From contig JBBQZX010000013.1 of the NCBI GenBank assembly GCA_038207335.1, forward strand, positions 1 through 64,000: 64,000 nucleotides of DNA. Reading direction: 5' to 3'. The translations under genes and the position numbers were made by a program. The notes below the pieces were generated by a model. The model saw nothing but the letters and a program-made list of their open reading frames with translations. It had not been told where the DNA came from and did no database searches. Below, in pieces: positions 30,260 through 47,869 of this stretch. This stretch comes from Chthoniobacterales bacterium. Its GTDB lineage: Bacteria; Verrucomicrobiota; Verrucomicrobiia; Chthoniobacterales; Chthoniobacteraceae. Numbering within the stretch: position 1 is the stretch's first letter; every line of letters begins with the position of its first letter.

Positions 30260-31363
30260 TTATCGTGGGGCGGCGCTTCGGAGCGGTTCTCGGAGGGCTG
30301 TTTTGCGCGAGTCGGGCGCGTGGGGGGCGGGTGCGGCCGAGGTGGGAGTGGGTTCGGGTGCAGAGCCTGCGCGCTGGACTGTGTACCCGGCGGCTTTCAG
30401 GAGGCTGGGGAGATTTTGGGGCTCCCCGACGAGGTGCTCGGCACCTACGACGATGAGGGCCGATCTACCAGAGGCAAAGATCGAGCCGATTTTGCGAACC
30501 CAGTTCTGGTTTCGCTTGGTGAGGAGATTGAAGTGCATCTCGTCGGCGATGAGGGCGCCGCCGCCGTTGAGCGTTCTTTTGAGTTCTGCCTCGTTGCCAC
30601 TGCGCCACGCGCGGCGAATCGGAATTGTGCCGAAATCTGGCTTGCCGAAGTTGAGGAGAGCGGAGCGAAGATTGGCCTCCTGGTCGGGGAGGTTGCTGTC
30701 GGCCATGGCATAGACTTGGTCCTGAGGCTGCTCGAGACCACCAACGGGCTTTTTATCCATGCGAGCACGCTGTTCGAGGAAATATTCCAAGGAGAAATCG
30801 CGGGCGAGCCCGGCGCGAGTGTAGCCTTCGCGAGTGATGGTGAGCGCGGCGAACCACGGCTCCATCGCCGTGATTTTCTCGAGTAACGCGGGGCTGTCTC
30901 GGAGGGCGATTTTGGTTTCACTCCATGCGCCGGGGGTTACGCGGGAGGAGAGGTGGCTGCGGTCGGGCGCGTAGCCGCGGCGGCTGAGGATGGTGCTGAT
31001 CTCGGCGGTCTCCCAGCCACCAGGCATGACCTCGAAGTAGAGGGTCTCGGCGCGCTCGTAGTAGGGGGAGTAGGCGGGGAAGAGATTCTGGTCGGGGTCC
31101 GCGCCGAGGTGGAGACAACCGGCGAGCCAAATGCGATTCTTGCCCTTGGAGACTTCCCAAATCCACGGGCGGTGGGCTGCGACCGCGGAGAGCTCGGCGC
31201 GGTGCTGCCGAGTGTAATTTTGGGCTGCGACGCCTTCGGACTCGAGTCGCGAACCGGCATCCTCGGCGGCACGGCTAGGAATCAGGGCGAGCGCGAGGAA
31301 GGAAACTAGGAATGCGGGGAGAAGTGCCCGGCGGGCAGGCAGGCGATGGGTTTGTGCGGACAC
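30260..31363 (-). CDS. TraB/GumN (Tiki-like) family protein
   Basis: WEVSKG..RIWLAGCLH, PVGGLE, RNQNW and VVGAEHL; N-terminal signal. Start uncertain (GTG at 31363 chosen). Confidence 0.8.
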   Translation of the reverse strand: MSAQTHRLPARRALLPAFLVSFLALALIPSRAAEDAGSRLESEGVAAQNYTRQHRAELSAVAAHRPWIWEVSKGKNRIWLAGCLHLGADPDQNLFPAYSPYYERAETLYFEVMPGGWETAEISTILSRRGYAPDRSHLSSRVTPGAWSETKIALRDSPALLEKITAMEPWFAALTITREGYTRAGLARDFSLEYFLEQRARMDKKPVGGLEQPQDQVYAMADSNLPDQEANLRSALLNFGKPDFGTIPIRRAWRSGNEAELKRTLNGGGALIADEMHFNLLTKRNQNWVRKIGSIFASGRSALIVVGAEHLVGEPQNLPSLLKAAGYTVQRAGSAPEPTPTSAAPAPHAPDSRKTALREPLRSAAPR

Positions 31364-31564
31364 GGTTGCGAACTTTAACAGCCTTTTGAAAATCGATCCG
31401 CCCGTGGCGGGACCGCGGGCTCGTAGTTTAAGCAGAAAACAGGAAACCAAGAAACATCGGGCTTGGGCGCGGATCGCGCGTTCCCGCTTTTCTAGTTTCC
31501 TACGTCAATTTCCACTCCCGCACAACCGCTGTGGAGGCACCTATTTGCGAACAATGCGAAACGC

Positions 31565-31807
31565 TCAGGGATTGAGTGTGACGGAGTGATAGCCAGCTCT
31601 GCTGACGTGTGCGCCGGTGCCGCTGCCGCGCTCGACCGAGCCCTGCATGTCGGTGGAATGGACAGTGCCATCGGCATCGACGACGCGGCTGCCCGGGAGC
31701 GGCCGTCCGGTGCGGCCATCGACGACGGTGGTGGTGGTGGATTCGCAGGCGGTGAGAAGGAAGCCGCTGAGGAGTGAAATGGTAAGGGTGAGCGTTGTTT
31801 TGTTCAT
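31565..31807 (-). CDS. Small lipoprotein
   Basis: MNKTTLTLTISLLSGFLLTAC with lipobox LTAC. Confidence 0.65.
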   Translation of the reverse strand: MNKTTLTLTISLLSGFLLTACESTTTTVVDGRTGRPLPGSRVVDADGTVHSTDMQGSVERGSGTGAHVSRAGYHSVTLNP

Positions 31808-31892
31808 GATGGGTTATGGATGCGGTGACTCGGGCGAAAGGGAGGCAAGCCGGTGAAGATTCTGTGCGATCGGTGGATGAAAGGAGCATTTC

Positions 31893-32333
31893 CTAATGTT
31901 CGCGTCGTATGCCTGCCGCTGCCGGACGGACGGGATAAAAGGGGAGGCAAACGAATGCAAGCACAAAGAGGTAGCTCGCACACAGGGTTAGGGCACCCGA
32001 TTTCCATTGGATTGATTTGGCGAGGGCACCGGCGCCGAACGCGTTAAGGAGTTCGAGCTTTTCGGCGCGCCACTGCCAGCCAGAGACGCCGACATCAATG
32101 AGCAAGCCTAGGCAGACGCCGGCGAGGAGTATCGAAAGCCGCGGATGGCGGTAGAGGATGGCAGCGGCGGCGATGACTGCCGCCGCTGCCCAAAGGCGTC
32201 CCCCGCCGCCCCAAGTAGTTTCGCCCAGACGGAGGGTGCCTGCGATGGGGACTGTGGCAAACGGTAGGAAGTGCGCGCCGAGGATGGCGACGGTGGCAAG
32301 AAGACCAGCGAGCAGTGGAATGAGACGGTTCAT
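31893..32333 (-). CDS. Hypothetical membrane protein
   Basis: About four hydrophobic segments; its start overlaps the ABC gene stop (ATGA). Confidence 0.7.
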   Translation of the reverse strand: MNRLIPLLAGLLATVAILGAHFLPFATVPIAGTLRLGETTWGGGGRLWAAAAVIAAAAILYRHPRLSILLAGVCLGLLIDVGVSGWQWRAEKLELLNAFGAGALAKSIQWKSGALTLCASYLFVLAFVCLPFYPVRPAAAGIRREH

Positions 32334-35300
32334 GAGCCGGCTTGTCGTTTGGAGAGGTTGACGAGCAATAAGATGTAACAGCCAGCGATCCAACCGCCGA
32401 GGACAGCCCAGCTCGTAATCGCGGGGACGGTCAGTTTGTAGGAGACTCCTTGCGGGAATAGGACATCACGGCGCGATTCAATGGTATCTCGAGCCGGAGC
32501 TTTGATTCGCGCGCCAACGGTGTGGCCGCGCACGATGAGGTTTTGCCAGGACTTGCTGACTTCGGAGAGCTTGTCGTAGCTCTCGGTTTCGGGAGCATCG
32601 TTCTCGGTGAAACGGACGGTCTCTTTTTCGTAAGGCGGGGAGGAAAGGAACGCCGGGATCTTGGTCTTGTTCGTAATGAGTGGCGTGATGCGCCCGTAAA
32701 GGTTTGCGGTATCCATGAGACGCTGCAAATTGAAGCTCGGAAGGACGGAGCTAAACCACAGGACTGGGCGCGCCATTTCGGGGGAGGTGACGACGAAACC
32801 GCCGAAAAGGATTTGCGGAATCAGGATCAATGGAACCCACATGACGGCTTGGGTAACTGTATTGACCGAGGCGGAAACCAGCAGACCGAGAGCGACTCCG
32901 CAAACCGCCGCGGCAAGCAAAGCGCCGACTCGGAGACTCAGGAGAGTGGCGAGGAAGCCAATCCAAGAGCGTTGGTCGTTGAAGTTGAAGGGGGTGGAGT
33001 AATTGTCTTCGCGTTTGACTCCGAGTTCGTCGAGGACGTTGTCTTTCACACGAAAGAACCACGCGATGTTTTCGAGAACCTTGAACTCTCGGTCGGACGC
33101 GACGAGGCCGGTGGGATTGGAGTAATGTGCGGTGTTTTCGACGATCGGTGGCTTGTAGTTATCAGCATCGACGATGAGAAAGTCGTCGGCAGGAGCGGCC
33201 ACGGGCTCGGTGCTGGAGTCGGCGGTTGTCTTTACCGCCGCGGGCTTCATGAATTCCGGCTGATCGGCAAAGAAGAGCTGCGCAAAGACGGCGTGTTCGG
33301 CTGCGTTATCGTGTTTCTCGAGATTCGGAAGGATTTCGGGATTGAATAAGTGGTGCGTACAAAGGACCGCGAGGAAAAGGATGATCGCTTGGACGGAGGT
33401 GATCGCGGACTGGAAGATCAGCTTGCTGACGACATAGACGTTCAGACCGACTCCGGCGAGGCGCTCGCGGCGGAAGATGGGAAGTTCCGCAACGATTTGT
33501 TGCGCGCCATTGCTGCACCCAAACCACAGGGTTGCGATGACGGTGATGAACATCTGAAAGACGAGATTTTCGCTCACCCATCCAACGAGAATCCCGATGA
33601 CCATGGCCTGCGCGAGGAGGAAGATGTAATTGAGCGGGTCGGCGATGAGGATGCGCCATTGGCGGGCGAGGAGGACGCTGAGGACCTTGATCGCCCCGGG
33701 GCGACGCGGTCCTGCTTGGGCCACCGCGTCGGGATCTTCGGCCTCGTGAACGGGCAGGAATTGCCGGCCTTTGAACGCGGCGAAGGCGTCAGCCATCTCC
33801 GCGGCGACTTTGGCGTCGAGATGGCGCTTGTTTAAGGTGGTGCCTTCGGGGGTGGCGCGGATTTGTTCGGCCCGGCGAGCGACGCTGCGCCCGACTTCGC
33901 CGTACACTTTTGGCAATTTGCTGAGAAGCTCGTCGTCGGAAATGCGTAGGGGTGCACCCGAGGAGCCGTAGCTGGAGCCGGCGGAGGCCGGGGTCGGGGT
34001 TGCGCCGTGGCTACCGGAGGCGGAGGAGGAGCTGTTGGGATTGCGACGGTCGCCGACGAGGAAGTAACGGACGGCTTCGGCGGAACGTCCGAGGAAAATG
34101 ATGCGACCGCCGTGGACCCAGACGATGGCTTTGAAAAGGTGGCTGTTCTGCAGGACGTGGGTGGTGCAGAGGATGCCCATGCGTTTGTTGCGCGCGAGGA
34201 CGGAGAGCTCGGTCATGAGTTCGCTTTCGGTCTGCGGGTCGAGGCCGGAGGTCGGCTCGTCGAGGAAGAGAAAACGCGGGTTCATGATGAGCTCGGAGGC
34301 GATGCTCACGCGCTTGCATTGACCACCGGAAAGGACGCGCACGGGTTTTGCTTGGTGCTCAGTGAGGGAGAGTGTGGCGAGGACCGTGTCCACGGCTTCC
34401 TCGACCTGCCGTTTTGGCAGTAAGACGCGCAAATTCGCCCCATAGACGAGCGCTTGGCGGACGGTGAGTTCTTTGTGGACGATGTCTTCCTGTGGGACGT
34501 ATCCGATCCCGGTCTTCGCCATATCCGCCGGGCCGGTGATGCGGCGTCCATCGATCCAGACGGCACCTGCCTGCGCGGGAGCCATGCCGCAGACGGCCTT
34601 CATCAGTGTGGATTTTCCCTGACCGCTGCCGCCGAGGACACCGACGAAATCTCCGCATTCGAGGTCGAGATCGACATCGGCGAGGATTTTGAATCCATCG
34701 TCTGCGACGCGCGCGAGCCCACGGGCCTGGATCGCGCCGCCTTGGCCGATGTGCGAGAGGGAGGTGCCGTTGAATTGGAATGTGTAGTAGTCGTAATCGG
34801 GAATCTGGATGCAATCGCCGAAGACGAGCCTCTCCCGCGTGAAGCCTTGGTCGCCGTTGAGCTTCGTGCGGTATTTGGAGTGGTCGTGGTGGTTGATCAG
34901 GTAGATGCCATCATTCTCGCGGACGAGTTCCGCCTGTTTGCTTGAGATGCTGAAAATCTCGGTGTCGAGAGCGAGGCGCGGGGTTGCTTCGCCGGCGCGA
35001 TTTTCGCTCCCACGTCCGATGATGAGGCCACCCGGAGGGATCGTGAGCTCGGAGCACGGCTTGCCTCCGTAGAGCGGTGCGGCGGGTGTGCGCTCGAGGA
35101 GAAAGGAAAGGTCGAGGCAATTGATGACACAACTGGAGACGGAGAGGATGCGCGACTCGGTGGGTCGCAGTGGGACGTTATTTACGGAGACTGTGTCCTC
35201 GGGACCGCGGCTCGAGAGCGCCCACGAGCAGGCGCGCGCCATCCAAGTCAGGCAGAGGTGGCCATTGGCGAGGCCGATTGTCTCGACGACTACCATGGAG

Positions 35301-35419
35301 CCGGGGCCGCCGATGGTGACTGGAGTGCCCTCGCCGCGCGTGCGGCCCGAGAGGTCGTCGAGGTCGAACGTCGCGGCGATTGCGTGATTGGCGTCGAGGA
35401 GGGAGAATCTGGAAATCAT
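32330..35419 (-). CDS. FHA-domain ABC transporter, NBD-permease fusion (Rv1747-like)
   Basis: Two FHA-like N-terminal regions; Walker A GGSGQGKST, LSGGQ, FLDEPTSGLD and TTH; ABC-2 membrane part with ELPIFRRER and IPQILFGG. Confidence 0.88.
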   Translation of the reverse strand: MISRFSLLDANHAIAATFDLDDLSGRTRGEGTPVTIGGPGSMVVVETIGLANGHLCLTWMARACSWALSSRGPEDTVSVNNVPLRPTESRILSVSSCVINCLDLSFLLERTPAAPLYGGKPCSELTIPPGGLIIGRGSENRAGEATPRLALDTEIFSISSKQAELVRENDGIYLINHHDHSKYRTKLNGDQGFTRERLVFGDCIQIPDYDYYTFQFNGTSLSHIGQGGAIQARGLARVADDGFKILADVDLDLECGDFVGVLGGSGQGKSTLMKAVCGMAPAQAGAVWIDGRRITGPADMAKTGIGYVPQEDIVHKELTVRQALVYGANLRVLLPKRQVEEAVDTVLATLSLTEHQAKPVRVLSGGQCKRVSIASELIMNPRFLFLDEPTSGLDPQTESELMTELSVLARNKRMGILCTTHVLQNSHLFKAIVWVHGGRIIFLGRSAEAVRYFLVGDRRNPNSSSSASGSHGATPTPASAGSSYGSSGAPLRISDDELLSKLPKVYGEVGRSVARRAEQIRATPEGTTLNKRHLDAKVAAEMADAFAAFKGRQFLPVHEAEDPDAVAQAGPRRPGAIKVLSVLLARQWRILIADPLNYIFLLAQAMVIGILVGWVSENLVFQMFITVIATLWFGCSNGAQQIVAELPIFRRERLAGVGLNVYVVSKLIFQSAITSVQAIILFLAVLCTHHLFNPEILPNLEKHDNAAEHAVFAQLFFADQPEFMKPAAVKTTADSSTEPVAAPADDFLIVDADNYKPPIVENTAHYSNPTGLVASDREFKVLENIAWFFRVKDNVLDELGVKREDNYSTPFNFNDQRSWIGFLATLLSLRVGALLAAAVCGVALGLLVSASVNTVTQAVMWVPLILIPQILFGGFVVTSPEMARPVLWFSSVLPSFNLQRLMDTANLYGRITPLITNKTKIPAFLSSPPYEKETVRFTENDAPETESYDKLSEVSKSWQNLIVRGHTVGARIKAPARDTIESRRDVLFPQGVSYKLTVPAITSWAVLGGWIAGCYILLLVNLSKRQAGS

Positions 35420-35456
35420 TGCCGCGCTTCCCGTGGACCCTCAGCCGCAAGCGCGA

Positions 35457-35978
35457 TCATTTCGGCACTGGGCCCCAATCCATGTCGATGTGTTTGCGTC
35501 CGTCGGAGGAGCGCACGTCGCCGGAGCCGCCACGGGTGCGGACGCCTTCGGGTTGTTTGGCCTGAGGGGGAGGAGTGTCGGAGAGCTTGAAGTCGCCGTT
35601 TGTTGTGGCCGGATCGTCACGGCGCGCCGCCTCCGCGCGAGCTGCGCCAAGTAGAGGCGCCAGTTCTTTTGCCAGTGCCTGCACATCCACCTTCGCCTTT
35701 GAGCGCGCTTCATCGAGCTCCGCTTGCATGGCCTGCATCTTTCCCTGCGCTTCGCTGAGCTGCGCGCGCAGGGTGCCCTCCGAGAGCTGTACGCGAGAGA
35801 GTTCCCGCTCTTTTTCGTCGATGCGTTTTTGAAAGGACTCGGAAAGTGCGCCGATTTGTCTGCTCTGGCTGTCGCAAGCGGAGAACAAACTGAGCGTCGC
35901 GACGGCGAGCACCGCGCTCCAGCGCATGCCACGGTTAGTTGAAGGTGGAGGATTCGTGGAAAGGGTGAGCGATTTCAT
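35457..35978 (-). CDS. Coiled-coil lipoprotein
   Basis: RWSAVLAVATLSLFSAC lipobox followed by a heptad-rich segment. Start is 35978 or 35927. Confidence 0.65.
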   Translation of the reverse strand: MKSLTLSTNPPPSTNRGMRWSAVLAVATLSLFSACDSQSRQIGALSESFQKRIDEKERELSRVQLSEGTLRAQLSEAQGKMQAMQAELDEARSKAKVDVQALAKELAPLLGAARAEAARRDDPATTNGDFKLSDTPPPQAKQPEGVRTRGGSGDVRSSDGRKHIDMDWGPVPK

Positions 35979-36084
35979 GCAAGGTCGGAAACTAGACTGG
36001 CGAACGCCGCCGTCCGGCAGGATCGGAAAAACGCAAATGATTCTTGACCGGCACACGACTGCAAGCCTTTTCTTTTTGTGTCCT

Positions 36085-36948
36085 ATGATCTCCAAAATTG
36101 TCCGGCTTCCGGTGCTCTTCCTCTTCGCCACGGTGTTAGTGATTCCGGGAAGCGCGCTTCGTGGACAGGATGCGCCGAAGGACCGCCAGAATGTTGGCCT
36201 TCCACAAATCAGCGTCATCGACAAGCTGCTTGCGGCAGAGATCAGCCTCGGGCCGAGCATGAAGCTGCGCGATGAAGAGGCGTGGGCTTCGCAATACAAG
36301 GCGCTTTACGGAAAATACAAGGAAGAGGCGAATCCGGGGAACATGTCCAAGAGTCGCACCGTGCTGGCGATGGCGCTCGGGATCAAAGCCTCGGATGGGG
36401 TGATAGCCTTGAAAGCGCGAGACATGGAAGCCCTGAACGACTGCGCCGAGCAGATCGAAAAGCTCGCGGCAAAGCTAGAGGTGCCCGGCAAAAATCTCGA
36501 GCGCGCCAGCATCGTCAAACACCACGCGAAACAGCAACACTGGGTAGAGGCATTCATGGAACTCGGATATTTGCAGTACCAGATCATGAGGACGCTGGAG
36601 AATAACCCCGAGCAGCGCGACGACGCGATGCTAGTCATCATCGGAGGCTGGCTCCAAGGCGGGCGCTGCGTTACTGGCCTTCTCTCCGAGCATTACACGC
36701 CAGAGGCCTCGAACATCCTGCGCGAGCCAAAACTCGTGGCGCTAATGATCAAGGAACTCGATAAGCTCAAACCAGAATACAAGCAGGATCCTGTGGTCGC
36801 GGCCGTGTTGAAGTTTCTCCCCGACGTGCAGCATAAGATCGATGTGGGGCTGCACGATCCCATCCCGCTCGAAGTGTTGAAATCGCTGAACGAAGGCTTC
36901 GAGCGGCTCGTCAAGCTGATCATGAAGCCGTCGGCTGCCGCTCCTTGA
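36085..36948 (+). CDS. Secreted all-alpha hypothetical protein
   Basis: Signal peptide MISKIVRLPVLFLFATVLVIPGSALRG; normal codon pattern; helical composition. Confidence 0.75.
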   Translation: MISKIVRLPVLFLFATVLVIPGSALRGQDAPKDRQNVGLPQISVIDKLLAAEISLGPSMKLRDEEAWASQYKALYGKYKEEANPGNMSKSRTVLAMALGIKASDGVIALKARDMEALNDCAEQIEKLAAKLEVPGKNLERASIVKHHAKQQHWVEAFMELGYLQYQIMRTLENNPEQRDDAMLVIIGGWLQGGRCVTGLLSEHYTPEASNILREPKLVALMIKELDKLKPEYKQDPVVAAVLKFLPDVQHKIDVGLHDPIPLEVLKSLNEGFERLVKLIMKPSAAAP

Positions 36949-37050: not shown

Positions 37051-40000
37051 ATGGAAAGTCCAACGCTCAATTACGAACACTTTCAGATCGAGACCGATAT
37101 CACGGGTGCCCCGGTCGAGCTGGATTCCAACGGGCAGGGAGTGACTTATCGCGCTTACGATACGCGGCTCAGAAAAACCGTTGCACTCAAGATTGTCCGG
37201 CGCGAATTGCTCCAGGACGACAACAATCGAAAACGGTTTCTCAACGAGGCGCGCGCGGCTGCCGCGCTCGACCACCCGAATATAGCGCGGGTGATCCACC
37301 TTTGCCCGGCGGACGCCGATGAGTTTTACTACGCGATGGAGATCGTGGATGGGGAGCCGCTCACGCAATACATCGAGCGGGAGGGGCCTATGCCACTGGA
37401 TCAGGCACTCCGCACGCTCCAGCCGATTGCCGAGGCGTTGATCGCGCTGGGCAATCAGCGGTTCGTCCACCGCGACATCCAGCCGGGAAACATTATGCTT
37501 ACGACTGGCGCGCAGGGGACGCCGACCGTGAAGCTCATCGATTTCGGCCTCGCGAAATCTATCGGCACGCAGGCGGGATTGCTCGAAGTCGTCAACACGG
37601 CGGAACTGCGCGCCAGCAGTGTCTATAATCTGAGCCCGGAGCAGATTCATGGAAATATCGCGATCGACTCCCGCGCGGATTTTTATGCGCTCGGCATCAC
37701 ACTCTGGACCTTGCTGACGGGCCATCCGCCGTTTGTCGGCAGTCCATTCGAGGTCAATGAAGGCCACCTCCACCGGGAGTTGCCGTGGGCGGAACTGCCC
37801 AACCTGCCGCCTCCGGCGCGCGGGTTGCTCGAGTCGATTTTGGCAAAAAGCGCGAGCGATCGACCCGCCGATGCGCACGCGCTGTGCAAGATGTGGGAGG
37901 CGGCGATTGCGAGCGCCGGGACCGGAGTGATGCCAATGCCGCGATCCGCGGGCCGAAAAAAAGAGGCGTCGAAGGAGCCGGCTGAGGAGACTGAAAGTGC
38001 GACAGCGGTTGGTAATCTGCGGCCCCTACACGAGGCTCCCGAGGGATGTTCCGAGCCGTCGCCTGCCGGAGTGCTCGCGGAAAAAGAGCGCGGTGGCGCG
38101 CTTTTCGTCGTCCGCACCATCCCCGAGCAACTCTCGGAATCCGTGCGCGACGAGCTTTTGCAAGCAACAAAGGCATCGCTCGATCACCCGCATCCGGCGC
38201 TGCTGAATGCTCGCGAAATTCGCGGCGCGCAGATCGTCAGCGACTGGAGGAAAGGGATCACGGCGGCGAAGCTGATCGCGATTCGGCGCGCGGACATTCC
38301 GCACGAGGTGATTCGCGGGTGGCTGCCGGCGGTCGCGCAAGCCGTCGATTGGGCGCGCGAAAACGGAGTGCAGCGGGCGACTTATCTGCCGACGAACTGG
38401 CTCGTGGAATTCCTCGATGCCGAGGTGGAGGAAACGCCGCTCGATCGTGCGCTGCGCGAGCCCGGCGTGTGGGGGCGCACCGCGGTGCGCGTCGATCCGC
38501 TGGCCGGTTTCGATTCGCTGCTGCTGGTCGCGGAGTCCGATCCGAATCAAACTTTGCTTCCCGGGGGCGGAGATCCGTTGACCTTTCCCTCCGCCTACAT
38601 TTCCGCGTTTGCACGCGGAGTGCGGGAGGCATTAGGCGGGCACTACCGGCAGGAAGAAGCGCCGCTGGCCACGATCAGCGAAGCGGCGAATGCTCTGCTC
38701 CTGGGTGCCATCAAGGGCCGCTCGGGATACGAAACCGCGGAGGCGTGGGCCGCTGCGTTTCTCGCCAGCGACGAGTCGAATGTTCCGGTAGCGCCTGTAC
38801 CCGCCGCGGCAATCACGCCGGGGATTCACGTGGCCGTGCGTGGGCTCGAAGGAGCAATGCGACGCGCTCCGGCGGCTGCCAAGAGTGGTGCTGCGGTTGG
38901 TGGATTTGCACAATTTTGGCGCTCAATGCCGGTCGCCGCGCGCTGGGCTGCGATCGTGGTCGCGCTGTTCCTGGTCGGTGGGCTCGCGTGGGGTTTCCTC
39001 GCTTCCCGCGCCAGAGCGCAGCGGGATGCCGTGACCGTCGCGCCGGTTGTGCCGCCTGCCTCGCCGGCGCGGCAGGATCTCGAGCGGGCAGAGGGCGCGT
39101 TTGCGAATGGCAATCGCGAACTCGCAAAAGGTCTGCTGCAGGACGTGCGGTCGAACATGCAGGGCAACGATGCGCAGGATCTGGAGCCGCGGATTGCCCA
39201 ACTCGAACAGCGAATGGAGGCGACAGCTCCGAAACCTCCGCGTGTGACGAGCATGGCGGAGAGAATCGAAGCTGCAACGAAGGATGAGTCTTTTGAGAAT
39301 GCGCTTGCGATGAAGTTCGTCCCGGTGCCGATCACGGGCGGGGAAACGGATGGGAGCCGCGTGCTTTTCGCGAGTACGGAGACGACCGTGGGTGTCTTCG
39401 AGAAATTCGCGAACAAGGAGTTATGGAAGCGTCAGCCGGGCCAGCAGGAGAACGATCCGGCTGTTTATCTCGTGCCGACGGACGCAGAGGCCTTCTGCCG
39501 TTGGATGAACAAGAAGTACAAGCTGCCGGGCAAATGGGAATATCGGCTGCCGACCGATCACGAGTGGAGCTGCGCGGCAGGGATCGGCGACAAGGAAGAT
39601 GCGGCGCTGCCAGCCAAGCAGCAGCAACCGGAGCGGAAAGAATATGCGTGGGGCGCATGGCCGCCAAAGCCCGCGAGTGGCAATTTTGCGGATGAAAGTT
39701 TCCGCAGCCTCCCGGGCGTGGACCCCACCGCGAGCGTGGTGAGCGGTTACAACGATGGATTCGCCGGCACTTCGCCGGTCGGAACCTTTGCGGTAAACCG
39801 GTTCGGGCTCTTCGACCTCGCGGGAAATGCGGCGGAGTGGTGCTACGATTCAACCGGATACGTTCTCCGCGGCGGCTCGTACTACAGCTCGAAGAAAGCG
39901 GAACTGGACCTTGCTGCGCGCCGTATCGGCGAAACGGACTCCCGTCAACCAATGAACGGCTTCCGCGTGGTGATCTCGGACCGGATCCCGCCGCGTCCTG

Positions 40001-40209
40001 TGGGCGGCACAGCGGCGGGTGCCACCACGGGCACCGCTCCCTCCTCGCGAGCGAATCAGGCGATTTCAGGCTCATTCCCCGGTTCGACTTATTCCGGATC
40101 CGTGCAAACGCCGCAGATCGTTCGCCCGCAGCCGGCGACCAATCCAGGCACCGTTACCACAATCACCCCACTCCCCCAAGCGCCCCTACCGTCAAACATT
40201 GGGCGTTAG
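37051..40209 (+). CDS. Ser/Thr kinase - degenerate kinase-like domain - TM - TPR-like - FGE-sulfatase-like domain (kinase 1)
   Basis: VALK, RFLNEARAAA, HRDIQPGN, DFGLAK and SPEQ; TM near 38945-39000; RLPTDHEW, GLFDLAGNAAEW, RGGS and NGFRVV. Confidence 0.88.
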   Translation: MESPTLNYEHFQIETDITGAPVELDSNGQGVTYRAYDTRLRKTVALKIVRRELLQDDNNRKRFLNEARAAAALDHPNIARVIHLCPADADEFYYAMEIVDGEPLTQYIEREGPMPLDQALRTLQPIAEALIALGNQRFVHRDIQPGNIMLTTGAQGTPTVKLIDFGLAKSIGTQAGLLEVVNTAELRASSVYNLSPEQIHGNIAIDSRADFYALGITLWTLLTGHPPFVGSPFEVNEGHLHRELPWAELPNLPPPARGLLESILAKSASDRPADAHALCKMWEAAIASAGTGVMPMPRSAGRKKEASKEPAEETESATAVGNLRPLHEAPEGCSEPSPAGVLAEKERGGALFVVRTIPEQLSESVRDELLQATKASLDHPHPALLNAREIRGAQIVSDWRKGITAAKLIAIRRADIPHEVIRGWLPAVAQAVDWARENGVQRATYLPTNWLVEFLDAEVEETPLDRALREPGVWGRTAVRVDPLAGFDSLLLVAESDPNQTLLPGGGDPLTFPSAYISAFARGVREALGGHYRQEEAPLATISEAANALLLGAIKGRSGYETAEAWAAAFLASDESNVPVAPVPAAAITPGIHVAVRGLEGAMRRAPAAAKSGAAVGGFAQFWRSMPVAARWAAIVVALFLVGGLAWGFLASRARAQRDAVTVAPVVPPASPARQDLERAEGAFANGNRELAKGLLQDVRSNMQGNDAQDLEPRIAQLEQRMEATAPKPPRVTSMAERIEAATKDESFENALAMKFVPVPITGGETDGSRVLFASTETTVGVFEKFANKELWKRQPGQQENDPAVYLVPTDAEAFCRWMNKKYKLPGKWEYRLPTDHEWSCAAGIGDKEDAALPAKQQQPERKEYAWGAWPPKPASGNFADESFRSLPGVDPTASVVSGYNDGFAGTSPVGTFAVNRFGLFDLAGNAAEWCYDSTGYVLRGGSYYSSKKAELDLAARRIGETDSRQPMNGFRVVISDRIPPRPVGGTAAGATTGTAPSSRANQAISGSFPGSTYSGSVQTPQIVRPQPATNPGTVTTITPLPQAPLPSNIGR

Positions 40210-40222
40210 GCGTTTTCGGGAC

Positions 40223-41098
40223 TCAGCGGAGCGTGTGCAGCCCAGTCACAGGTGGGAATCCTTTCACCGCGTGGCTCCCCGGCACCGGATCGAGAATAAT
40301 GTCACTTTTCAAACGCTCCGCCGCCGCCGCGCTCATCAGAAATGGCAGACGGAGCCCGGCCGCGACTTTCTCCAGCCGAAAGCCGAGGGATAGATCGTCA
40401 CTCATCAGGCTCTCCTCGCCGAGCGAAGGCGCGCCGCCAATCGCGACATTTCCCCAATGCAGCGCGACCCGGTACGCGACTTTCGACTTCTCATGCAGCT
40501 CGCGAAATTCCCTCACCGCAGCCGCGACCCGCTTCGCCACGCCCTCGCCTTCGCGCCAGAACGCGAGAAATCCGTCGCCGGTGTATTTGTTGATTCGCCC
40601 GCCGTTTTTGCTCACGAGCTCGGAAGTCGCGGCGAGCCAGCCGCCGACGCGGATCGCGAGTTCGGCGGGCGGCATCGTTTTGCTCAGGGCCGAATATCCT
40701 TCGAGGTCGGCGATCAAAATCCAGCGCTCCTCGACGCGCACATCATGCGCGGTGGAGATGAGCAGTGACTGCGCGCGGATGAGCGCGGCGGTCGTCGTCT
40801 GGCGAAAAGTGAGTTCGACGCCATGTCCGAGATTCACAGAGTCCCCATCCTGCAGGCAGACCGGAGCGACGACTCGCTCCCTGTTGACGTATGTGCCGTT
40901 CGTGCTGCCGAGATCGACGATCCAAAACTCGCCGCTGTCCTGCGAGTGGATGAGCACATGGCGGCGCGAGACTTTATCGTGTGCAAAGCCGTATCGATTG
41001 ATCGTGCTGGCGCGGCCGAGCGACGAGGTGCCATTGAGCGGATACCGCTGGCCGGCGGTGTCCTCGAGCCACGGCGATTCAACCATTTCGGGAGGCAT
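40223..41098 (-). CDS. FHA domain + class III adenylate/guanylate cyclase
   Basis: FHA: LGR, VSRRH and DLGSTNGTYVN. Cyclase: IADLEGYS, KYTGDGFLAF, RVALHWG.V and FRLE. Confidence 0.88.
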   Translation of the reverse strand: MPPEMVESPWLEDTAGQRYPLNGTSSLGRASTINRYGFAHDKVSRRHVLIHSQDSGEFWIVDLGSTNGTYVNRERVVAPVCLQDGDSVNLGHGVELTFRQTTTAALIRAQSLLISTAHDVRVEERWILIADLEGYSALSKTMPPAELAIRVGGWLAATSELVSKNGGRINKYTGDGFLAFWREGEGVAKRVAAAVREFRELHEKSKVAYRVALHWGNVAIGGAPSLGEESLMSDDLSLGFRLEKVAAGLRLPFLMSAAAAERLKSDIILDPVPGSHAVKGFPPVTGLHTLR

Positions 41099-41188: not shown

Positions 41189-43948
41189 ATGGCTTCGCTC
41201 AGGTACGGACACTTTCAGGTGGAGACGGATGCGGCGGGGCTGCCGGTCCGGCTAGGCCCCGGCAGCATGGGGACGACGTATCGCGCCCTCGATACGCATC
41301 TGCGGAAAACCGTGGCGCTAAAGGTGATCGACGAGCGGTTCCTCGCGAACCCCACAAGCCGCCGCCGCTTTTTCAACGAAGCGCGCACTGCCGCGCAGCT
41401 TGAGCATCCGAATATCGCGCGCGTTCTCTACCTCTGTCCGGAGGACGCGAAAACGTGCTTTTTCGCGATGGAGCTGGTCGATGGCGAGACGCTGGGTGAG
41501 CGCGTCGCGCGGCTTGGTCCGTGCTCGGCTTCCGAGGCGCTGGCGCTGCTGCGGCCAGTCGCGGATGCCCTGGCTTGCCTCGGCCGGCACAAGCTCGTGC
41601 ACCGGGATGTGAAGCCCGAAAATATCATGCTCGGGAAAGACCCGCGCGGGAATGTGCGCGTGAAGCTCATCGATTTCGGACTTGCGAAATCGGTCGATGC
41701 GCGAGCGAGCAGCATGGAGCCGGTGGAGAGCGGTGAGACATTTTTTGGAAGTTCGTATTTTGCGAGTCCCGAACAGGTGCGGTCCCGCGAGACGTTGGAT
41801 CACCGGAGCGACTTCTACTCGCTCGGAGCCACACTTTGGCACGCCCTCACGGGAGCTCCGCCGTTCACTGGAGCAACTTTCGAGGTTCATGAAGGGCACG
41901 TGAATCGCCAGCCGCCGTGGGAGAAAATCGGCACTCAGCCGGAGGCTGTGCGCGATCTTTTGAAAGCGCTGCTGGCCAAGGATGCCGCGGCGCGTCCGCG
42001 CGATGCGGCTGAACTCGCACGCCTATGGGATGCAGCCACGGTCGCCGTGGCCGTTGCAGTGCCCGCACCATCTCCAAAGCCTGCGGCGAAGCCAGTGCTG
42101 ACTTCACCGAGCGTCGGCAGTCGGCTGCGATGGAAGCGCGCGGAGGCCGTGCCGCACGGCTGCTCAGCTCCACCATTCTCCGGCTTCCTGGCGCGCGATG
42201 CCGAGACGAATGGGTGGTACTTCATCCGCCCGCTGCCGCCCGCGTTGCCAGAGTCGATTCGCGCGGAGATCGTAGATGGCGCAAGGCGCGCGCTCGACGC
42301 GCCACTGGAGGGGGCGCGACCGGTGCTGGAGGTGCTCGACGAGTGCATCGTCAGCGAATGGCGTCGCGGAGTGAGCCTCGCGCATTTTCTGGCGGTGGCA
42401 GGAAAAGGGCTGACGCTCGAACTCGTCCTTCCGTGGCTGCCGCCGATCGCGGAGGTTTTGGATTTTGCGACCGAGCACAGCCTCGGAGGCATCAGCCTCC
42501 AGCTCTCGAATGTCTGGCTGGAATTCGAGCAGAGTGCCGACGGCCGCGCGCCGCTGGAGATCGCCATGCTGCCGCCGGCGGAGTGGGGGAGGCATAGTGC
42601 GCGCATCGGCCTGCTGGGTGCATTCGATCCGATGCTTGAGTCGCTGGCCGTGCGGGGGATCGTGCCGGAAGCCGCGCCATCCGCCGCGGTCGCAGCCGAG
42701 CCGCTGCCGCATTTTGCGGCTCTTATTTATCGCGTGCTCGGCGGCGACGAATCGCCAACCGGCTCAGCGCTGGAGCCGATTCACGACCTCGACGGCGCGC
42801 GCAATCGCCTCCTCATCGAGACGATCGAAGGCCGTTCACAAATCACCACGGCGCGCGAATGGGTCGCCGCATTTTGCGAGGGGCGGCAACCTCAGCCTAT
42901 CGCAGCCGATCTCGTGCCTACGCCTTTGGAAAAGCGCGTAGCTCCGAGTCGCTGGCCGATTTTGGCGGGCGTCTGCGCGCTGGCTGTGACTTTGTTTTTC
43001 ATGCTGCGCGGCTCGGATGAAAAGCCCGCGCCCGCACCCGACCCCGAGCCCACCCCGCACGCGGACTGGAGAAGTGCAAAGCCGAGCGTGCCGACGCTCG
43101 ACGGTGGTACGCGCGTCGTGGAAAAAAAGCCCGCCGCGCCTGAGCAAGTCGAGATTCTACCCGCTCCAAAAGTCCTTACGCCCGAGTCCGCGCGCCCACC
43201 CGCCGACTTTGTGAACACGCTGGGGATGCGCTTTAAAAGCTGCCGCATCGTCGCCTCCGTCGAAAACGAAGCCATCCTCGTATCCGTCTGGGAAACGCGC
43301 CGCGCCGACTACGCGCCATTCGCGCGCGCCACCGGTCGCCCAATGCCCGCCACTTCCAACACTGGGCCCGCAGCCGGGCTCGATCCCGTCGCGGCGGTCT
43401 CGTGGAATGACTCGCGCGATTTCTGCGCGTGGCTCACTAACGACGAGATCGCCGCCGGGAAACTGGACGCTCACTGGCGCTACCGCCTGCCGACCGACCA
43501 CGAGTGGAGCAGTCTGATAGGCATTGCCGGGATGAACGACGAATGGCCCGGAATCCCGCTCTGGCAAAAGCATTTAAAGCTTCTCGGACGCTACATGTGG
43601 GGCTCCGACTGGCCGCCTCGCGCGCTTATCGGCAACATCGCGGATGTCTCTGCCGCTCGCGCGCACTCCGACTGGAAAACCGTGGGCGGATACGACGATG
43701 GCTTTCCGGAAGTCGCGTCCGTCGGCAGCTTTGCGCCGGATAAAAATGGCATCTTCGACCTCGTTGGAAACGTCATGGAATGGTGTGCGGACACGCCCGA
43801 ATTCGACCCGGGTAACAAAGTGCTCCGCGGCGGTTCGTTCGCGCGCGGAGACCGGCAAACGCTGCTCGCGTGCTTCCGCGTCGCCATGCTTCAAAACGCA
43901 AAGGCGACCGACGCCGGCTTCCGCATCGTCTTGGTGCAGCGAAAATAA
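41189..43948 (+). CDS. Ser/Thr kinase - degenerate kinase-like domain - TM - FGE-sulfatase-like domain (kinase 2)
   Basis: GPGSMG, VALK, HRDVKPEN, DFGLAK and SPEQ; TM WPILAGVCALAVTLFFML; RLPTDHEW, GNVMEW, RGGS and GFRIV. Confidence 0.9.
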   Translation: MASLRYGHFQVETDAAGLPVRLGPGSMGTTYRALDTHLRKTVALKVIDERFLANPTSRRRFFNEARTAAQLEHPNIARVLYLCPEDAKTCFFAMELVDGETLGERVARLGPCSASEALALLRPVADALACLGRHKLVHRDVKPENIMLGKDPRGNVRVKLIDFGLAKSVDARASSMEPVESGETFFGSSYFASPEQVRSRETLDHRSDFYSLGATLWHALTGAPPFTGATFEVHEGHVNRQPPWEKIGTQPEAVRDLLKALLAKDAAARPRDAAELARLWDAATVAVAVAVPAPSPKPAAKPVLTSPSVGSRLRWKRAEAVPHGCSAPPFSGFLARDAETNGWYFIRPLPPALPESIRAEIVDGARRALDAPLEGARPVLEVLDECIVSEWRRGVSLAHFLAVAGKGLTLELVLPWLPPIAEVLDFATEHSLGGISLQLSNVWLEFEQSADGRAPLEIAMLPPAEWGRHSARIGLLGAFDPMLESLAVRGIVPEAAPSAAVAAEPLPHFAALIYRVLGGDESPTGSALEPIHDLDGARNRLLIETIEGRSQITTAREWVAAFCEGRQPQPIAADLVPTPLEKRVAPSRWPILAGVCALAVTLFFMLRGSDEKPAPAPDPEPTPHADWRSAKPSVPTLDGGTRVVEKKPAAPEQVEILPAPKVLTPESARPPADFVNTLGMRFKSCRIVASVENEAILVSVWETRRADYAPFARATGRPMPATSNTGPAAGLDPVAAVSWNDSRDFCAWLTNDEIAAGKLDAHWRYRLPTDHEWSSLIGIAGMNDEWPGIPLWQKHLKLLGRYMWGSDWPPRALIGNIADVSAARAHSDWKTVGGYDDGFPEVASVGSFAPDKNGIFDLVGNVMEWCADTPEFDPGNKVLRGGSFARGDRQTLLACFRVAMLQNAKATDAGFRIVLVQRK

Positions 43949-44045
43949 CCGGCCCGACCGTCAAGCGCTTCTCGTCTTTTACGGCACCGCCTCCACATTC
44001 GGGATTGCCGCAAGGGTCCGAGGAAAGATAGCGTCCGCGTTCGCT

Positions 44046-47042
44046 ATGGGAGCCAAAGTTTCTCGGTTCGAACATTTCGAGATCCTAAAGGACGATAAGG
44101 GCGAACTTGTGAAGCTCGGTCCGGGCGGGATGGGCACCACTTATCGCGCTTACGACCTGCATCTTCGCAAGCTCGTCGCCCTCAAGATCATTAACGACCG
44201 CACGCTCCCCGACCCGTCTGCGCGCCGCCGTTTTTTTAATGAAGCGCGCGCCGCCGCCTCCATCGATCATCCGAACGTCGCGCGTGTCATTTACCTCTGT
44301 CCCGAAGACGCGGCGGAGTGCTCTTTCGCCATGGAACTCGTCGAGGGCGAAACCCTCGCCCGGCGCATCACAGATCACGGCCCGCTGGCCCCCGGCGAAG
44401 CACTCGTGCTGCTGCGCCCCATCGCCGATGCGCTTATCGCTCTCGGTGCGCGGGCGCTCGTCCATCGAGACATCAAGCCGGAAAACATCATGTCCACGAA
44501 GTCGGCGGAAGGGCAGGGGGAACTGAAGCTCATCGATTTCGGCCTCGCGAAAACGGTCGCCGAAAACTCCAGCATCTTTGAGTCCGTCCACACCGGCGAG
44601 CGCTTCGTTGGGAGCGTTTATTTCGCAAGCCCGGAGCAGATTCGGCCAAAGGAAGGCATCGATTGCCGGAGCGATTTCTATTCGCTCGGCGCCACGCTTT
44701 GGTACGTCGTCACCGGCGCGCCGCCCTTTACGGGCACCGCGTTCGAGGTCCAGGAGGCTCACATTTACAAGGAGCCGCCTTGGGAGAAAATCGCGGATTT
44801 TCCCGAGCCCATCATCGACATCCTCCGCACGCTCCTCGCCAAAGAAGCGGCGGACCGACCGGCCACCGCCACCGCCCTCGTTGCACAGTGGGACGGCGCG
44901 ATCGCCGGCATCGAGAGCTTTCCCACCCGCATCGAGCCCTCGCGCAAAGCTACCTCACCTCCCGCTCCCGTCCCCGCCTCCCCCACCATCCTCTCCAGCG
45001 CACTCCTGCCCGACGAAGCCGCGCTCCCTCCGCACTCCGGCAGCCTCTCGCGCGACCCGACGACCGGCGCGATGCAGTTCGTCCGCCCCATACCGTCCGG
45101 CATCGGTGCCGAGCTGCTCTCCACCCTCACCCGCGCCGCGCAAACCGCCCAGTCCTCACCGCACCCCGGCCTCCTCTCCATCCGCTCTGTCAGCGACACC
45201 TGCATCGTCAGCGACTGGCCCGCCGCCGTCACCGCCGCGCAAATCGCCAAGTGGCACCGCGGAGCCCCCTTCTCGAAGCTCGTATTCCGCTGGCTGCCCG
45301 CCATCGCCGCCGCCATCGACTTCGGACGCGCCCGCGGCCTCGCCCACCTCGGCCTCCAGCCCGAGCGCATCCTCGTCGGTATCGACTTCAGCGCCGGCGG
45401 CTCCCTCCAGGCCATCGACCTCGCCGCGTGGGAAAATGCGCGCGTCTGGCTAGACCCGCTCGCCGGCTTCGATGTCGGGCTCGTCGCCGCAGCCAAGGGT
45501 ACCGAAGCGGGCGGCATCGGACGGCGCGTCCCCGCCTGCACCACCGTGCGCGAATACATCGCCGCACTCGCCCGCTGCATTCGCGACTTCGCGGGCGGCG
45601 GCACCGAGGGCCGGCCCCTCCCTTCCAACGCCTTCAACGAAACCCGCTCCCGGATGCTCTCCGAGGCCATCAACTACCGGTCCAGCGCCTCCTCCGTCGC
45701 CGAATGGGCCGCCGCATTCGCCTCCACCCCTCAACCCGCCAGCGAGCACCCCGCCTCCGCCATCGTCACCCCCGTCATCGCTACTTCCGCGGCCAAGGCC
45801 CCGCCGACTCCCGGCACCCCCGCCGTCCCGAGCCCCGCACCCGCGACTGCTCCTACCTCTTCTCCTGCGGCATCGTCACCTCGGGCGAAAGTCGCGCGGC
45901 GTGGCAATCGCAAATCCCGCAAAATCGGCATCGCCCTCGCCACACTCACCGTTTTGGGGATGCTAGTCGGGGCCGTCTGGATCTTTGTCTTCTCCCCTGA
46001 CCACGAGAGCGAGGAATTCCGCGCCGTCATGGCCTCCGCTGAGACCGCCCTCGCCGCCGGCGACCACGACCGCGCCACCACCCGGGCCAATTCCGCCGCC
46101 CGCATCAACCCCAAGAACAAGCGCCTCCTCGCCCTCATGGAGCGCCTCAAGCCTGCCCCCCCACCTGCCCCGACGCCCCAGCCCATCATCGCGAAAACCG
46201 CCACACCCGCGCCCGTCCGCCCCGCCACCCCCGCCGACGCCACCCTGGCAGCCCCCTTCACCAATGAACTCGGCATGAGATTCGTCCCAGTGAAGATCAC
46301 CGGCCCGGCTGCGGGCGGGCACCCAGTCCTCTTCTCCATCTACGAGACCCGCCTCAAGGAATTCGAGCACTTTGCAAAGAAAGACGCCTGGCAGCGCCAG
46401 TCTTTCCAGATCAGCGGCGACGAACCGGCCGTCAATCTCGTTCCCGCCGACGCCGAGGCCTTCTGCCGCTGGCTGAATAAGCACTACCCACTCCCCGCCA
46501 AATGGGAATACCGCCTCCCCACCGACCACGAGTGGAGCTGCGCCGCCGGCATCGGCACCGATGAAGACACCGAGGCCGCCAACGGCACCCGTCCCCCGGC
46601 GGCGAAGCGCTTCACTTGGGGCGCCACTTGGCCCCCCGACCGCCCCGTCGGCAACTTCGCCGACCAGACCTTCGCCCGCACCGCCGCCGGACGTGAGCAC
46701 CTCGCTGGCTACGACGACGGCTTCGCCGGCACCTCCCCCGCAGGCACATTCCCCCCCAACGACCTCGGCCTCTTCGACCTCCAGGGCAACGCCGCCGAGT
46801 GGTGCTTCGACTCCACCCAATACCGTCTCCGCGGCGGCTCCTACCTCAGCGCCACGAAATCCGAGATCGACCTCACCTCTCGCGGCTTCGGCGAATCCGA
46901 CGCCCGCAAATCCATGAACGGCTTCCGCGTCGTCATCGCCGAAAGCAACGCCGCCTCCCAGCGAGACGGACGCTCCACCAAAATCCAGGGCGCCTTCCCG
47001 CCCACCTCCGCCCCCATGCCACCCTGGATCCTCACGAGGTAA
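44046..47042 (+). CDS. Ser/Thr kinase - degenerate kinase-like domain - TM - TPR-like - FGE-sulfatase-like domain (kinase 3)
   Basis: GPGGMG, VALK, HRDIKPEN, DFGLAK and SPEQ; TM IGIALATLTVLGMLVGAVWIFVF; RLPTDHEW, GNAAEW, RGGS and NGFRVV. Confidence 0.9.
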   Translation: MGAKVSRFEHFEILKDDKGELVKLGPGGMGTTYRAYDLHLRKLVALKIINDRTLPDPSARRRFFNEARAAASIDHPNVARVIYLCPEDAAECSFAMELVEGETLARRITDHGPLAPGEALVLLRPIADALIALGARALVHRDIKPENIMSTKSAEGQGELKLIDFGLAKTVAENSSIFESVHTGERFVGSVYFASPEQIRPKEGIDCRSDFYSLGATLWYVVTGAPPFTGTAFEVQEAHIYKEPPWEKIADFPEPIIDILRTLLAKEAADRPATATALVAQWDGAIAGIESFPTRIEPSRKATSPPAPVPASPTILSSALLPDEAALPPHSGSLSRDPTTGAMQFVRPIPSGIGAELLSTLTRAAQTAQSSPHPGLLSIRSVSDTCIVSDWPAAVTAAQIAKWHRGAPFSKLVFRWLPAIAAAIDFGRARGLAHLGLQPERILVGIDFSAGGSLQAIDLAAWENARVWLDPLAGFDVGLVAAAKGTEAGGIGRRVPACTTVREYIAALARCIRDFAGGGTEGRPLPSNAFNETRSRMLSEAINYRSSASSVAEWAAAFASTPQPASEHPASAIVTPVIATSAAKAPPTPGTPAVPSPAPATAPTSSPAASSPRAKVARRGNRKSRKIGIALATLTVLGMLVGAVWIFVFSPDHESEEFRAVMASAETALAAGDHDRATTRANSAARINPKNKRLLALMERLKPAPPPAPTPQPIIAKTATPAPVRPATPADATLAAPFTNELGMRFVPVKITGPAAGGHPVLFSIYETRLKEFEHFAKKDAWQRQSFQISGDEPAVNLVPADAEAFCRWLNKHYPLPAKWEYRLPTDHEWSCAAGIGTDEDTEAANGTRPPAAKRFTWGATWPPDRPVGNFADQTFARTAAGREHLAGYDDGFAGTSPAGTFPPNDLGLFDLQGNAAEWCFDSTQYRLRGGSYLSATKSEIDLTSRGFGESDARKSMNGFRVVIAESNAASQRDGRSTKIQGAFPPTSAPMPPWILTR

Positions 47043-47170
47043 AATCGCACATCTTCTCCCTTGGATGACAGCGTGAAAATCGCGCCTAACACCGGCTGCG
47101 CTGAGCTTGATATCTCTGGCTGTCGGGGCCAGAGTCGGGCAGAGCGGAGCACTCAGAGACGAACGAACTC

Positions 47171-47869
47171 ATGAATAACCATTCCTTACCGACGCGGATA
47201 ATGTTTGCGGCGGCTATGGCTGTCGTGTTTGTCGGGTTCGGTCGAGTGTCGGTGGCGGCGCAGCCTATGGGCGCGCAGCCGTCGAAGACGGCGGCGGATG
47301 AGAAGTGGCGGACTCAATTTCAAGCCCCGAAGACGCCGCCGGGGCAGGGTACGCCTGCGGCGACACCCTCACCGGAGACGGGGAAGGTGACTTACACGCT
47401 GCAAATGCCGAAAGAGCCAACGGAGGAGGAGCGGAAGTTGTTCGACCAGATCGATCATTCGATGCAGGCGGCGATCGGCTTCTACAATCACTACACAAAG
47501 CTGCGGAAGCACCTGACGGTCACCTACAATGCCGGCGTGCCGACGGCGGATGGGAATATCAACGGCTCGATCCGGGTCGGTGGGCAGCGCAATACGCGGG
47601 TGCTGCTCCACGAGATGGGCCACTGCATGGGGGTGGGGCAGCACCACAACTGGGGCAAGCTAATGGTCAATGGCCTCTGGCAGGGAGACCGCGCGAACAA
47701 GCTCCTGCAGGAGCTGACAAACGACCCGAACGCACAGCTCCACGGCGACCGGATGCACTTCTGGCCGTATGGGCTGAACTTCGACAACGAGGTGAAGTCG
47801 GACGAGGACATGATCCGCCATGCAAAGCTCGTGGAGGCGATGGTGAAGGACATGGACGCCGCGAGGTGA
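47171..47869 (+). CDS. Secreted protein with zincin-like HExxH motif (putative metalloprotease)
   Basis: Signal peptide; GVPTADG, LLHEMGHCMGVG and HFWPYGLN. Confidence 0.7.
   Translation: MNNHSLPTRIMFAAAMAVVFVGFGRVSVAAQPMGAQPSKTAADEKWRTQFQAPKTPPGQGTPAATPSPETGKVTYTLQMPKEPTEEERKLFDQIDHSMQAAIGFYNHYTKLRKHLTVTYNAGVPTADGNINGSIRVGGQRNTRVLLHEMGHCMGVGQHHNWGKLMVNGLWQGDRANKLLQELTNDPNAQLHGDRMHFWPYGLNFDNEVKSDEDMIRHAKLVEAMVKDMDAAR

Follow-up and report, generated by a model that had tools for sequence, protein, structure and literature searches.

A conserved FHA-FHA-ABC transporter and kinase-pseudokinase receptor locus in a Chthoniobacterales bacterium

Described systems and the locus

The Mycobacterium tuberculosis transporter Rv1747 is positively regulated by PknF phosphorylation and needs Ser47 of its FHA-1 domain (PMC3138270). 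A transporter of related architecture is encoded in the window, a stretch of 64,000 nucleotides of contig C13 (JBBQZX010000013.1, positions 1 to 64,000) from a Chthoniobacterales bacterium, genome G000 (GCA_038207335.1; 5.17 Mb, 94.7% complete). It belongs to a locus of eleven genes at positions 30260-47869, all of which were present on inspection of the open reading frames (ORFs) and their domains. The conserved core of this locus is the FHA-FHA-ABC exporter, a lipoprotein (LipB), a secreted all-alpha protein (HEL) and a membrane receptor in which a kinase is followed by a pseudokinase. The FGE sensor domain of the receptors K1, K2 and K3, an FHA-cyclase and a TraB protease are one lineage's version of the module. 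An envelope-linked Ser/Thr-kinase/FHA locus had been predicted here, and it is real and, among soil-type Verrucomicrobia, conserved. It is not self-contained, as had also been proposed, since the source genome has, elsewhere or in addition, two PP2C, 11 FHA, 8 Pfam cyclase and 10 cyclic-nucleotide-binding matches, with FHA-cyclases and another FHA-ABC/kinase locus among them.

As in the Rv1747/PknF pair, the FHA-FHA-nucleotide-binding domain (NBD)-ABC2 protein is encoded with a membrane Hanks kinase and the Arg and Ser of FHA2 are kept. Unlike Rv1747, FHA1 is degenerate, the linker between the FHA domains is short and without a conserved Thr, and the membrane domain has long loops. The receptor has an extra pseudokinase, and there are periplasmic partners in HEL, LipB and a PPC-like protein.

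The original prediction also drew a likeness to the Pseudomonas TagQRST-PpkA-Fha1 pathway. That pathway is a sensor module of the H1 type VI secretion system and responds to membrane damage. The parts list is shared, with a lipoprotein, an FGE domain, an ABC ATPase, a membrane Ser/Thr kinase and an FHA protein clustered in both, and 7 of 20 relatives also carry a Gly-zipper lipoprotein. The likeness is nevertheless loose. TagR is a free periplasmic FGE protein bridging lipoprotein and kinase, whereas the FGE domain is fused to K1-K3 here, is absent from most versions of the module and is dispensable. The FHA domains sit on the ABC protein, which is of the ABC2 type. No phosphatase family was matched by the locus proteins in profile scans, and the absence of core genes of the type VI secretion system, noted for the window, extends to the whole source genome for VipB (PF05943) and Hcp (PF05638), neither of which was found in its 94.7% complete sequence. 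LipA and LipB have no match to TagQ (NF041250), and the Gly-zipper lipoprotein of one relative reaches only E 0.012, far below the cut-off.

A third comparison is with the type VIIb secretion system, in which the YukC pseudokinase is bound by YukB FHA domains devoid of phosphate-binding residues (PMC9600267), and with MviN, whose phosphorylated pseudokinase recruits FhaA (PMC12599244). EssB/YukC with EssC/YukB, and MviN with FhaA, resemble the locus in having a membrane pseudokinase beside FHA partners, one FHA domain being without phosphate-binding residues. In contrast to both, the pseudokinase here follows a kinase domain within one receptor chain, the ATPase is an ABC exporter and no secretion substrates were seen. 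JAK-type proteins are kinase/pseudokinase pairs, and these and plant WTK1/Yr15 likewise hold an active and a dead kinase domain in one chain. This is an analogy only, since the domains here are bacterial and PknB-like, with a C-terminal transmembrane (TM) helix and a periplasmic ectodomain.

We give an even chance to the reading that the module is a receptor-controlled envelope export unit, an elaborated form of the Rv1747/PknF type. The evidence for it is the linkage of the core, the dedicated clades of HEL and of the receptors, the motifs of the ATPase, FHA2, K2 and K3, a second lineage of loci found in G000 and G006, and the Rv1747, YukB and MviN precedents. Kinase-FGE fusions as such are already known. 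The locus is a real, conserved variant with an unusual receptor architecture and partners of unknown family, and apparently undescribed, as the original prediction had allowed. No description of it was found in the literature searched on Chthoniobacter/Verrucomicrobia kinases, FHA, kinase-pseudokinase proteins and formylglycine neighbourhoods, a search that left out most subscription papers, and the FGE-sulfatase literature held nothing relevant among the matches listed. The words 'tandem' and 'Verrucomicrob' are absent from the available text of two surveys on kinases and pseudokinases of bacteria (bioRxiv 10.1101/2025.01.12.632604 and PMC12599244), whose supplements, outside the search, could list such proteins. 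The locus offers a compact signalling-export unit, open to testing, in an abundant but poorly studied phylum.

Conservation of the core

Comparison of gene neighbourhoods, suggested as a check when the locus was predicted, shows that the genes do co-occur in other genomes. The order from TraB to K3 recurs in a genome of another genus (G092), at 47–71% identity, and on a metagenome contig (L086). The clustering is therefore beyond chance. The same order is found without the cyclase at L097, and in G090 the locus lies on two contigs and is without K2 and the cyclase.

Genomes were also picked by the FHA region of the transporter alone. This region matches in 23 of the 401 genomes of the order, including G000, and the counts use 20 of the 22 others, with the stretch around the transporter fetched in each. 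HEL was found in 15 of the 20, a kinase-pseudokinase in 15 (G366 being counted on its pseudokinase part only), a LipB-type gene in 17 (by a profile built partly from the counted loci), a small secreted PPC-like gene in 15, the small membrane protein in 5, and an S41/PDZ protease with a Gly-zipper lipoprotein in 7. HEL, LipB-type, ABC and kinase-pseudokinase genes occur together in 15/20, across 8 genera, 5 families and several gene orders. Among the five incomplete cases, those of G300, G178 and G348 are at or near a contig edge and G015 has HEL copies on other contigs. The remaining two matching genomes have contigs of only 3–4 kb, carrying HEL, PPC-like and LipB-type genes in G470 and the start of the ABC gene in G342. 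A class-wide search gave matches in 6 of 301 genomes, three of these being further genomes outside the order. Two of the three (G789 and G861) have HEL, LipB-type and kinase-pseudokinase genes beside the transporter. The collection comprises 33 loci in all, 13 of which were found through HEL and are therefore biased; HEL and LipB-type genes are each present in 28, a kinase-pseudokinase in 19, TraB in 5, the FHA-cyclase in 2 and HExxH in none.

The FGE domain and the cyclase, first read as the sensor and as one of the outputs, do not belong to this core. Of the 20 transporter-picked genomes, one has an FGE-kinase next to the transporter, and none has the FHA-cyclase, TraB or HExxH gene there. 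The secreted HExxH protein (motif HEMGH; 47171..47869, + strand), previously taken as a member, is a neighbour outside the module, with different genes following K3 in G092 and G090. It is indeed a bystander, and with about 25 kinase-like ORFs and 11 FHA matches in the genome the locus might be seen as a loose gathering of signalling genes without shared function. The recurrence of the four-gene core in rearranged orders, in 5 families and outside the order, largely refutes this idea, which we consider scarcely credible.

The distribution is patchy, and none of the seven same-genus genomes in the order-wide search has a match. Together with the swapping of ectodomains and the triplication of receptors, this is in keeping with a conflict or immune system in which diversified FGE (C-lectin-fold) ectodomains would sense phage or a competitor and set off kinase and cyclic-nucleotide signalling. 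Plant tandem kinase-pseudokinases are resistance proteins, which provides a background analogy. FGS domains have been found in conflict systems (PMC7159879). An immune role is nonetheless very doubtful. PADLOC matches (PD-T4-6, MADS and Pycsar) are confined to the generic kinase, ATPase or cyclase domains. HEL, LipA, the membrane protein, TraB and HExxH have none, and no conserved effector gene was seen. K1, K2 and K3 are stable orthologous clades across genera, and the GC content of the locus matches that of the genome (63.0% vs 62.3%).

Transporter and receptors

The transporter gene (32330..35419, − strand) has Pfam matches to ABC_tran and ABC2_membrane and weak matches to FHA. Residues were counted in 31 homologs, with four canonical FHA-ABCs as controls. 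The Walker A Lys, Q-loop, signature Ser, Walker B DE and H-loop are each present in 31/31. In FHA2 the phosphate-binding Arg (R136) is kept in 30 and the Ser (S159) in 28. In FHA1 the Arg of the GR motif is gone in nearly all rows and the Ser is found in 3; the window copy is without both. The Rv1747-type features found are thus the architecture with its ATPase motifs and, in 15 of the 20 genomes, a linked membrane Hanks kinase, and not the phosphothreonine-binding Arg/Ser of both FHA domains. The possibility that both FHA domains are dead was dropped after this count. The membrane domain has two long inter-TM loops with conserved motifs, predicted to be periplasmic. Two FHA proteins with distinct outputs had been predicted; both proteins are present, with export through the FHA-ABC protein as the conserved candidate output and the cyclase as an optional one. 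If the export reading is true, the locus gives a second handle on the role and switching of FHA-ABC exporters.

A small multi-TM membrane protein (31893..32333, −) overlaps the ABC gene by 4 nt, pointing to translational coupling. It has no Pfam/NCBIfam family, and a homolog is near the ABC gene in 17 of the 33 loci. At L078, L081, L083 and L091 two HEL paralogs flank the gene for this protein, in one operon downstream of ABC.

The receptors K1 (37051..40209, +), K2 (41189..43948, +) and K3 (44046..47042, +) have the Pkinase, single TM and FGE-sulfatase features expected of three paralogous membrane kinases, with 34–41% mutual identity. In each of them a domain of about 270 aa, overlooked at first, lies between kinase and TM (K1 37996-38805, K2 42116-42916, K3 44946-45764); a short helical segment follows the TM in K1 and K3 before the FGE-like domain. 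The middle domain is a second kinase-fold domain. An alignment of 23 middle domains matches the N-terminal kinases (hhalign 96.7%), its profile matches PknB/StkP (E 3e-18), and 12 of the 23 members have a Pkinase match, the K1 member having none. An AlphaFold model (pLDDT 92.8) finds PknI/PknB in Foldseek at E ~1e-6 and TM 0.55–0.61. Plain BLAST of the K1 kinase against the K1 middle domain was insignificant, so that profiles and structure are needed to see the relationship. The catalytic (VAIK) Lys is replaced by Arg in all three, HRD has become RAT, GIS and HLG in K1, K2 and K3 respectively, and DFG is missing. Because all these residues are lost, the middle domain, as judged from sequence and model, is a pseudokinase and is predicted to be catalytically dead. 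A Thr at the position of K1 T501 occurs in 17 of 23 pseudokinase rows and is a candidate phosphosite. This exposes a bacterial architecture of kinase, pseudokinase, TM and variable ectodomain. If the proposed signalling is true, it would provide a bacterial model for control of a kinase by its fused pseudokinase.

The first kinase domains differ in their state. Those of K2 (HRDVKPEN) and K3 (HRDIKPEN) have intact HRDxK and DFG motifs. That of K1 has HRDIQP and eroded glycine and P+1 loops. HRDxK is absent from 6/6 members of the K1 clade and DFG from 5/6, the window K1 being the one that retains it. These residues suggest that K1 is probably dead in both kinase domains, with a probable co-receptor role. 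In a FastTree tree K1, K2 and K3 form separate ortholog clades across genera. The three are thus old paralogs that have probably specialised. Twelve non-FGE receptors linked to the ABC gene fall into a single clade. The outer domain varies, being FGE-like in the window and another beta-rich domain in most relatives. Relatives also have giant receptors of 1,500–2,700 aa. Giant kinase-pseudokinases were seen at L133:7751-17094 (contig C1 of G000), L087, L095, L137 and L138, some beside a putative beta-barrel gene; those of L087 and L095 have no Pfam match in their long C-terminal part.

Among the best 150 representatives at 50% identity from a whole-library search, 130 have a kinase followed by a pseudokinase. 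HRDxK is kept in the first domain of 123 of these 130 and an HRD-like motif is found in the second domain of 5, while FGE is present in 13. Retention of HRDxK argues for signalling. It argues against a pure scaffold, in which the proteins would be a permanent membrane assembly for export or for building a surface structure, the pseudokinase serving as a hub for the FHA-ATPase in the manner of EssB/YukC and EssC/YukB and phosphorylation only adjusting it. As in the type VIIb system (PMC9600267), a pseudokinase does occur here together with an ATPase whose FHA domain is degenerate, and a putative beta-barrel gene (5 of 33 loci), small lipoproteins and the giant receptors are present as well in relatives. 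On the other hand, neither a conserved secreted substrate nor a conserved channel was seen in the loci, and the ATPase is an ABC2 exporter rather than FtsK-like. Such a machine is improbable.

A second type of locus was found in two species of the genus, at L031:6047-13406 (contig C22 of G000, ~10,000-17,400) and L066:4526-12489 (G006). It encodes a kinase-pseudokinase with Sel1 repeats (in the G000 copy), an FHA-cyclase with its Asn intact, a canonical two-FHA ABC protein and OmpA proteins. This lineage independently ties the kinase-pseudokinase receptor type to both FHA outputs.

From the observed domain anatomy, residue states and gene linkage we infer the signal, binding, phosphorylation, substrate and mechanism of the preferred reading, a receptor-controlled exporter. 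HEL and LipB, with the PPC-like secreted partner in most relatives, would form a periplasmic input or accessory layer. Binding of a cue by the variable outer domain may pair or cluster the single-pass receptors. K2 and K3 would then autophosphorylate, and K1 would serve as a dead co-receptor. The transporter may dock through FHA2 on phosphothreonine and possibly through the degenerate FHA1 on the pseudokinase, as with the YukB FHA and YukC. This would switch on an ATPase-competent ABC2 exporter, whose cargo would be a lipid of the envelope or a small molecule. The same phosphosites could have an optional second reader in the FHA-cyclase.

Several observations weigh against this. Gene linkage leaves the direction of control unfixed, from kinase to ABC or from ABC to kinase. 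In the window subtype the FHA2 His is replaced by Gln (14 of 31) and a further Ser follows the conserved Ser, so that phosphothreonine binding by FHA2 is not certain. In a column scan of the short FHA1-FHA2 linker no Thr reached conservation in 60% of rows, unlike the Rv1747 sites. In G032 the TraB, membrane protein, ABC, LipB and HEL genes are together and a K1-like kinase is on another contig. The G318 transporter has no recognised partner on its 19-kb contig, and over 25.6 kb in G833, outside the order, its companions are the S41 and Gly-zipper genes alone. The genomes are also related, and the counts from them are not independent.

If control runs the other way, the ABC protein would be an upstream sensor, as TagST is for PpkA (PMC13713981). 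The lipoprotein, HEL and ABC would sense damage to the envelope and switch on the kinases, which would act on FHA-cyclases and other FHA proteins located elsewhere. It is consistent with this that the ABC gene travels most tightly with LipB and HEL, that its inter-TM loops are long and conserved, and that the Gly-zipper lipoprotein and S41/PDZ protease join it in 7/20 genomes. A phosphothreonine-type FHA2 on the ABC protein fits a downstream reader better, however, and the locus has no further conserved FHA output (FHA-cyclase 0/20). The transporter is also of the ABC2 type, and TagST belongs to another ABC class. An upstream sensor is thus possible but unlikely.

Periplasmic proteins, the cyclase and neighbouring genes

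HEL (36085..36948, +) has no Pfam/NCBIfam family. Its AlphaFold2 model has a pLDDT of 93.7. Foldseek gave no match at E ≤ 0.001, the best VIA-wide Z was 6.5, to generic helical bundles only, no PDB sequence matched, and the Atlas gave only unnamed Verrucomicrobiota clusters. The closest ortholog is from Chthoniobacter sp. A genome scan with the single HEL protein recovered no locus and was rerun with an alignment as query. Homologs are nearly universal in the order (59 of 61 genomes) and are found in 14 of 201 genomes across the phylum. In a quick tree a single clade (support 100) takes in all 33 ABC-linked HEL rows and 9 others, and 25 housekeeping-type copies fall outside it. If the module functions as proposed, it would be the first functional context for this family. 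Immediately after the housekeeping-type HEL comes a gene for a small secreted PPC-like protein, often with an ACT-domain gene next, and such pairs are widespread in the order (L032:9227-10497, L125:9130-10440, L044, L045, L049, L123, L127 and L131). Distant single homologs at L119:9227-10177 and L120:9782-10732, without other module genes nearby, come from small genomes (2.3–3.2 Mb) of one genus of another order.

LipB (35457..35927, −) combines a coiled coil with a linker of low complexity and, at its C-terminus, a short alternating hydrophobic strand ending in F/W. With a pattern drawn up once the sequences had been seen, the F/W tail motif is found in 20 of 31 LipB-type proteins. Its homology to longer relatives is supported by the N-terminal 41 columns only (hhalign 88%), together with gene position. 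LipA (31565..31807, −) is an accessory lipoprotein of 80 aa with an LLTAC lipobox. It has a 62% identical ortholog in the same place in G092 and is present in 4 of the 33 loci. Neither lipoprotein has a Pfam/NCBIfam family. A complex prediction for the ABC membrane domain, LipB and HEL (score 0.00, mark 0.32, controls not folded) speaks neither for nor against their association.

The TraB/PrgY/GumN (Tiki-like) protein (30260..31363, −; GTG start codon at 31363) is a secreted metalloprotease by its Pfam match (PF01963, E 3e-40) and a lineage-specific accessory. The five loci with TraB beside the transporter are all of the window subtype. Another sub-operon recurs beside ABC and encodes a Gly-zipper lipoprotein and an S41/PDZ C-terminal protease, often together with a tiny lipoprotein (L102, L103, L108, L110, L113, L114, L116, L039, L077 and L134). 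Its genes are never together with TraB in the 33 loci, which suggests that the proteases are exchangeable. A more specific form of the export reading can be offered tentatively and is itself rather unlikely. The receptors, including a doubly dead K1 paired with active paralogs, would gate the ABC protein by a two-key dock of FHA1 on pseudokinase and FHA2 on phosphothreonine. On the periplasmic side, HEL and the C-terminal strand peptide of LipB would act as the trigger, which an exchangeable protease (TraB/Tiki here and S41/PDZ in relatives) would trim.

The FHA-cyclase (40223..41098, −) has a canonical FHA domain (Pfam E 2e-16) and a C-terminal half that aligns to class III cyclases (bPAC, E 2e-7), although with no Pfam cyclase match. 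Like the class IIIb adenylyl cyclases bPAC, CyaB and Rv1900c it keeps both metal Asp residues (D131 and D175), the substrate Lys (K171) and Ser/Thr (S230), and the transition-state Arg (R241). Unlike these it has an N-terminal FHA domain as regulatory part and Ser (S237) for the transition-state Asn, as does the G092 ortholog. This Asn is dispensable in Rv1900c (PMC4886424), so that catalytic activity is plausible from the remaining residues. Contig C4 of G000 (~50,000-71,000; L071:15440-17917 and L072:1-7750) has within ~20 kb a PP2C phosphatase and an FHA-cyclase paralog, 44% identical and with the Asn kept, as well as a protein that weakly matches the pseudokinase and two proteins in which FHA and kinase are fused.

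A promoter scan was at chance (2 sites vs 2.3 expected), and 29 terminator-like sites were observed against 17.5 ± 4.3 expected. Homologs of the HExxH protein are found in 4 of 61 genomes, including G000, and it is a stand-alone copy of a domain found elsewhere in frames of ~1,150–1,200 aa (L146, L147 and L149). Before the locus, at 19273-27035, the window encodes two Lamin-tail-domain (LTD) proteins, one of them an LTD/CotH-kinase protein of 1605 aa, and a fusion of sulfatase and PA14. At 29502-30245 there is a 247-aa ORF without a Pfam match, whose ExxH-type motifs suggest a ferritin-like di-iron protein. Directly beyond the locus, at 48542-56373, are genes for a bacterial alpha-2-macroglobulin and then PBP1C, a known envelope-protection pair.

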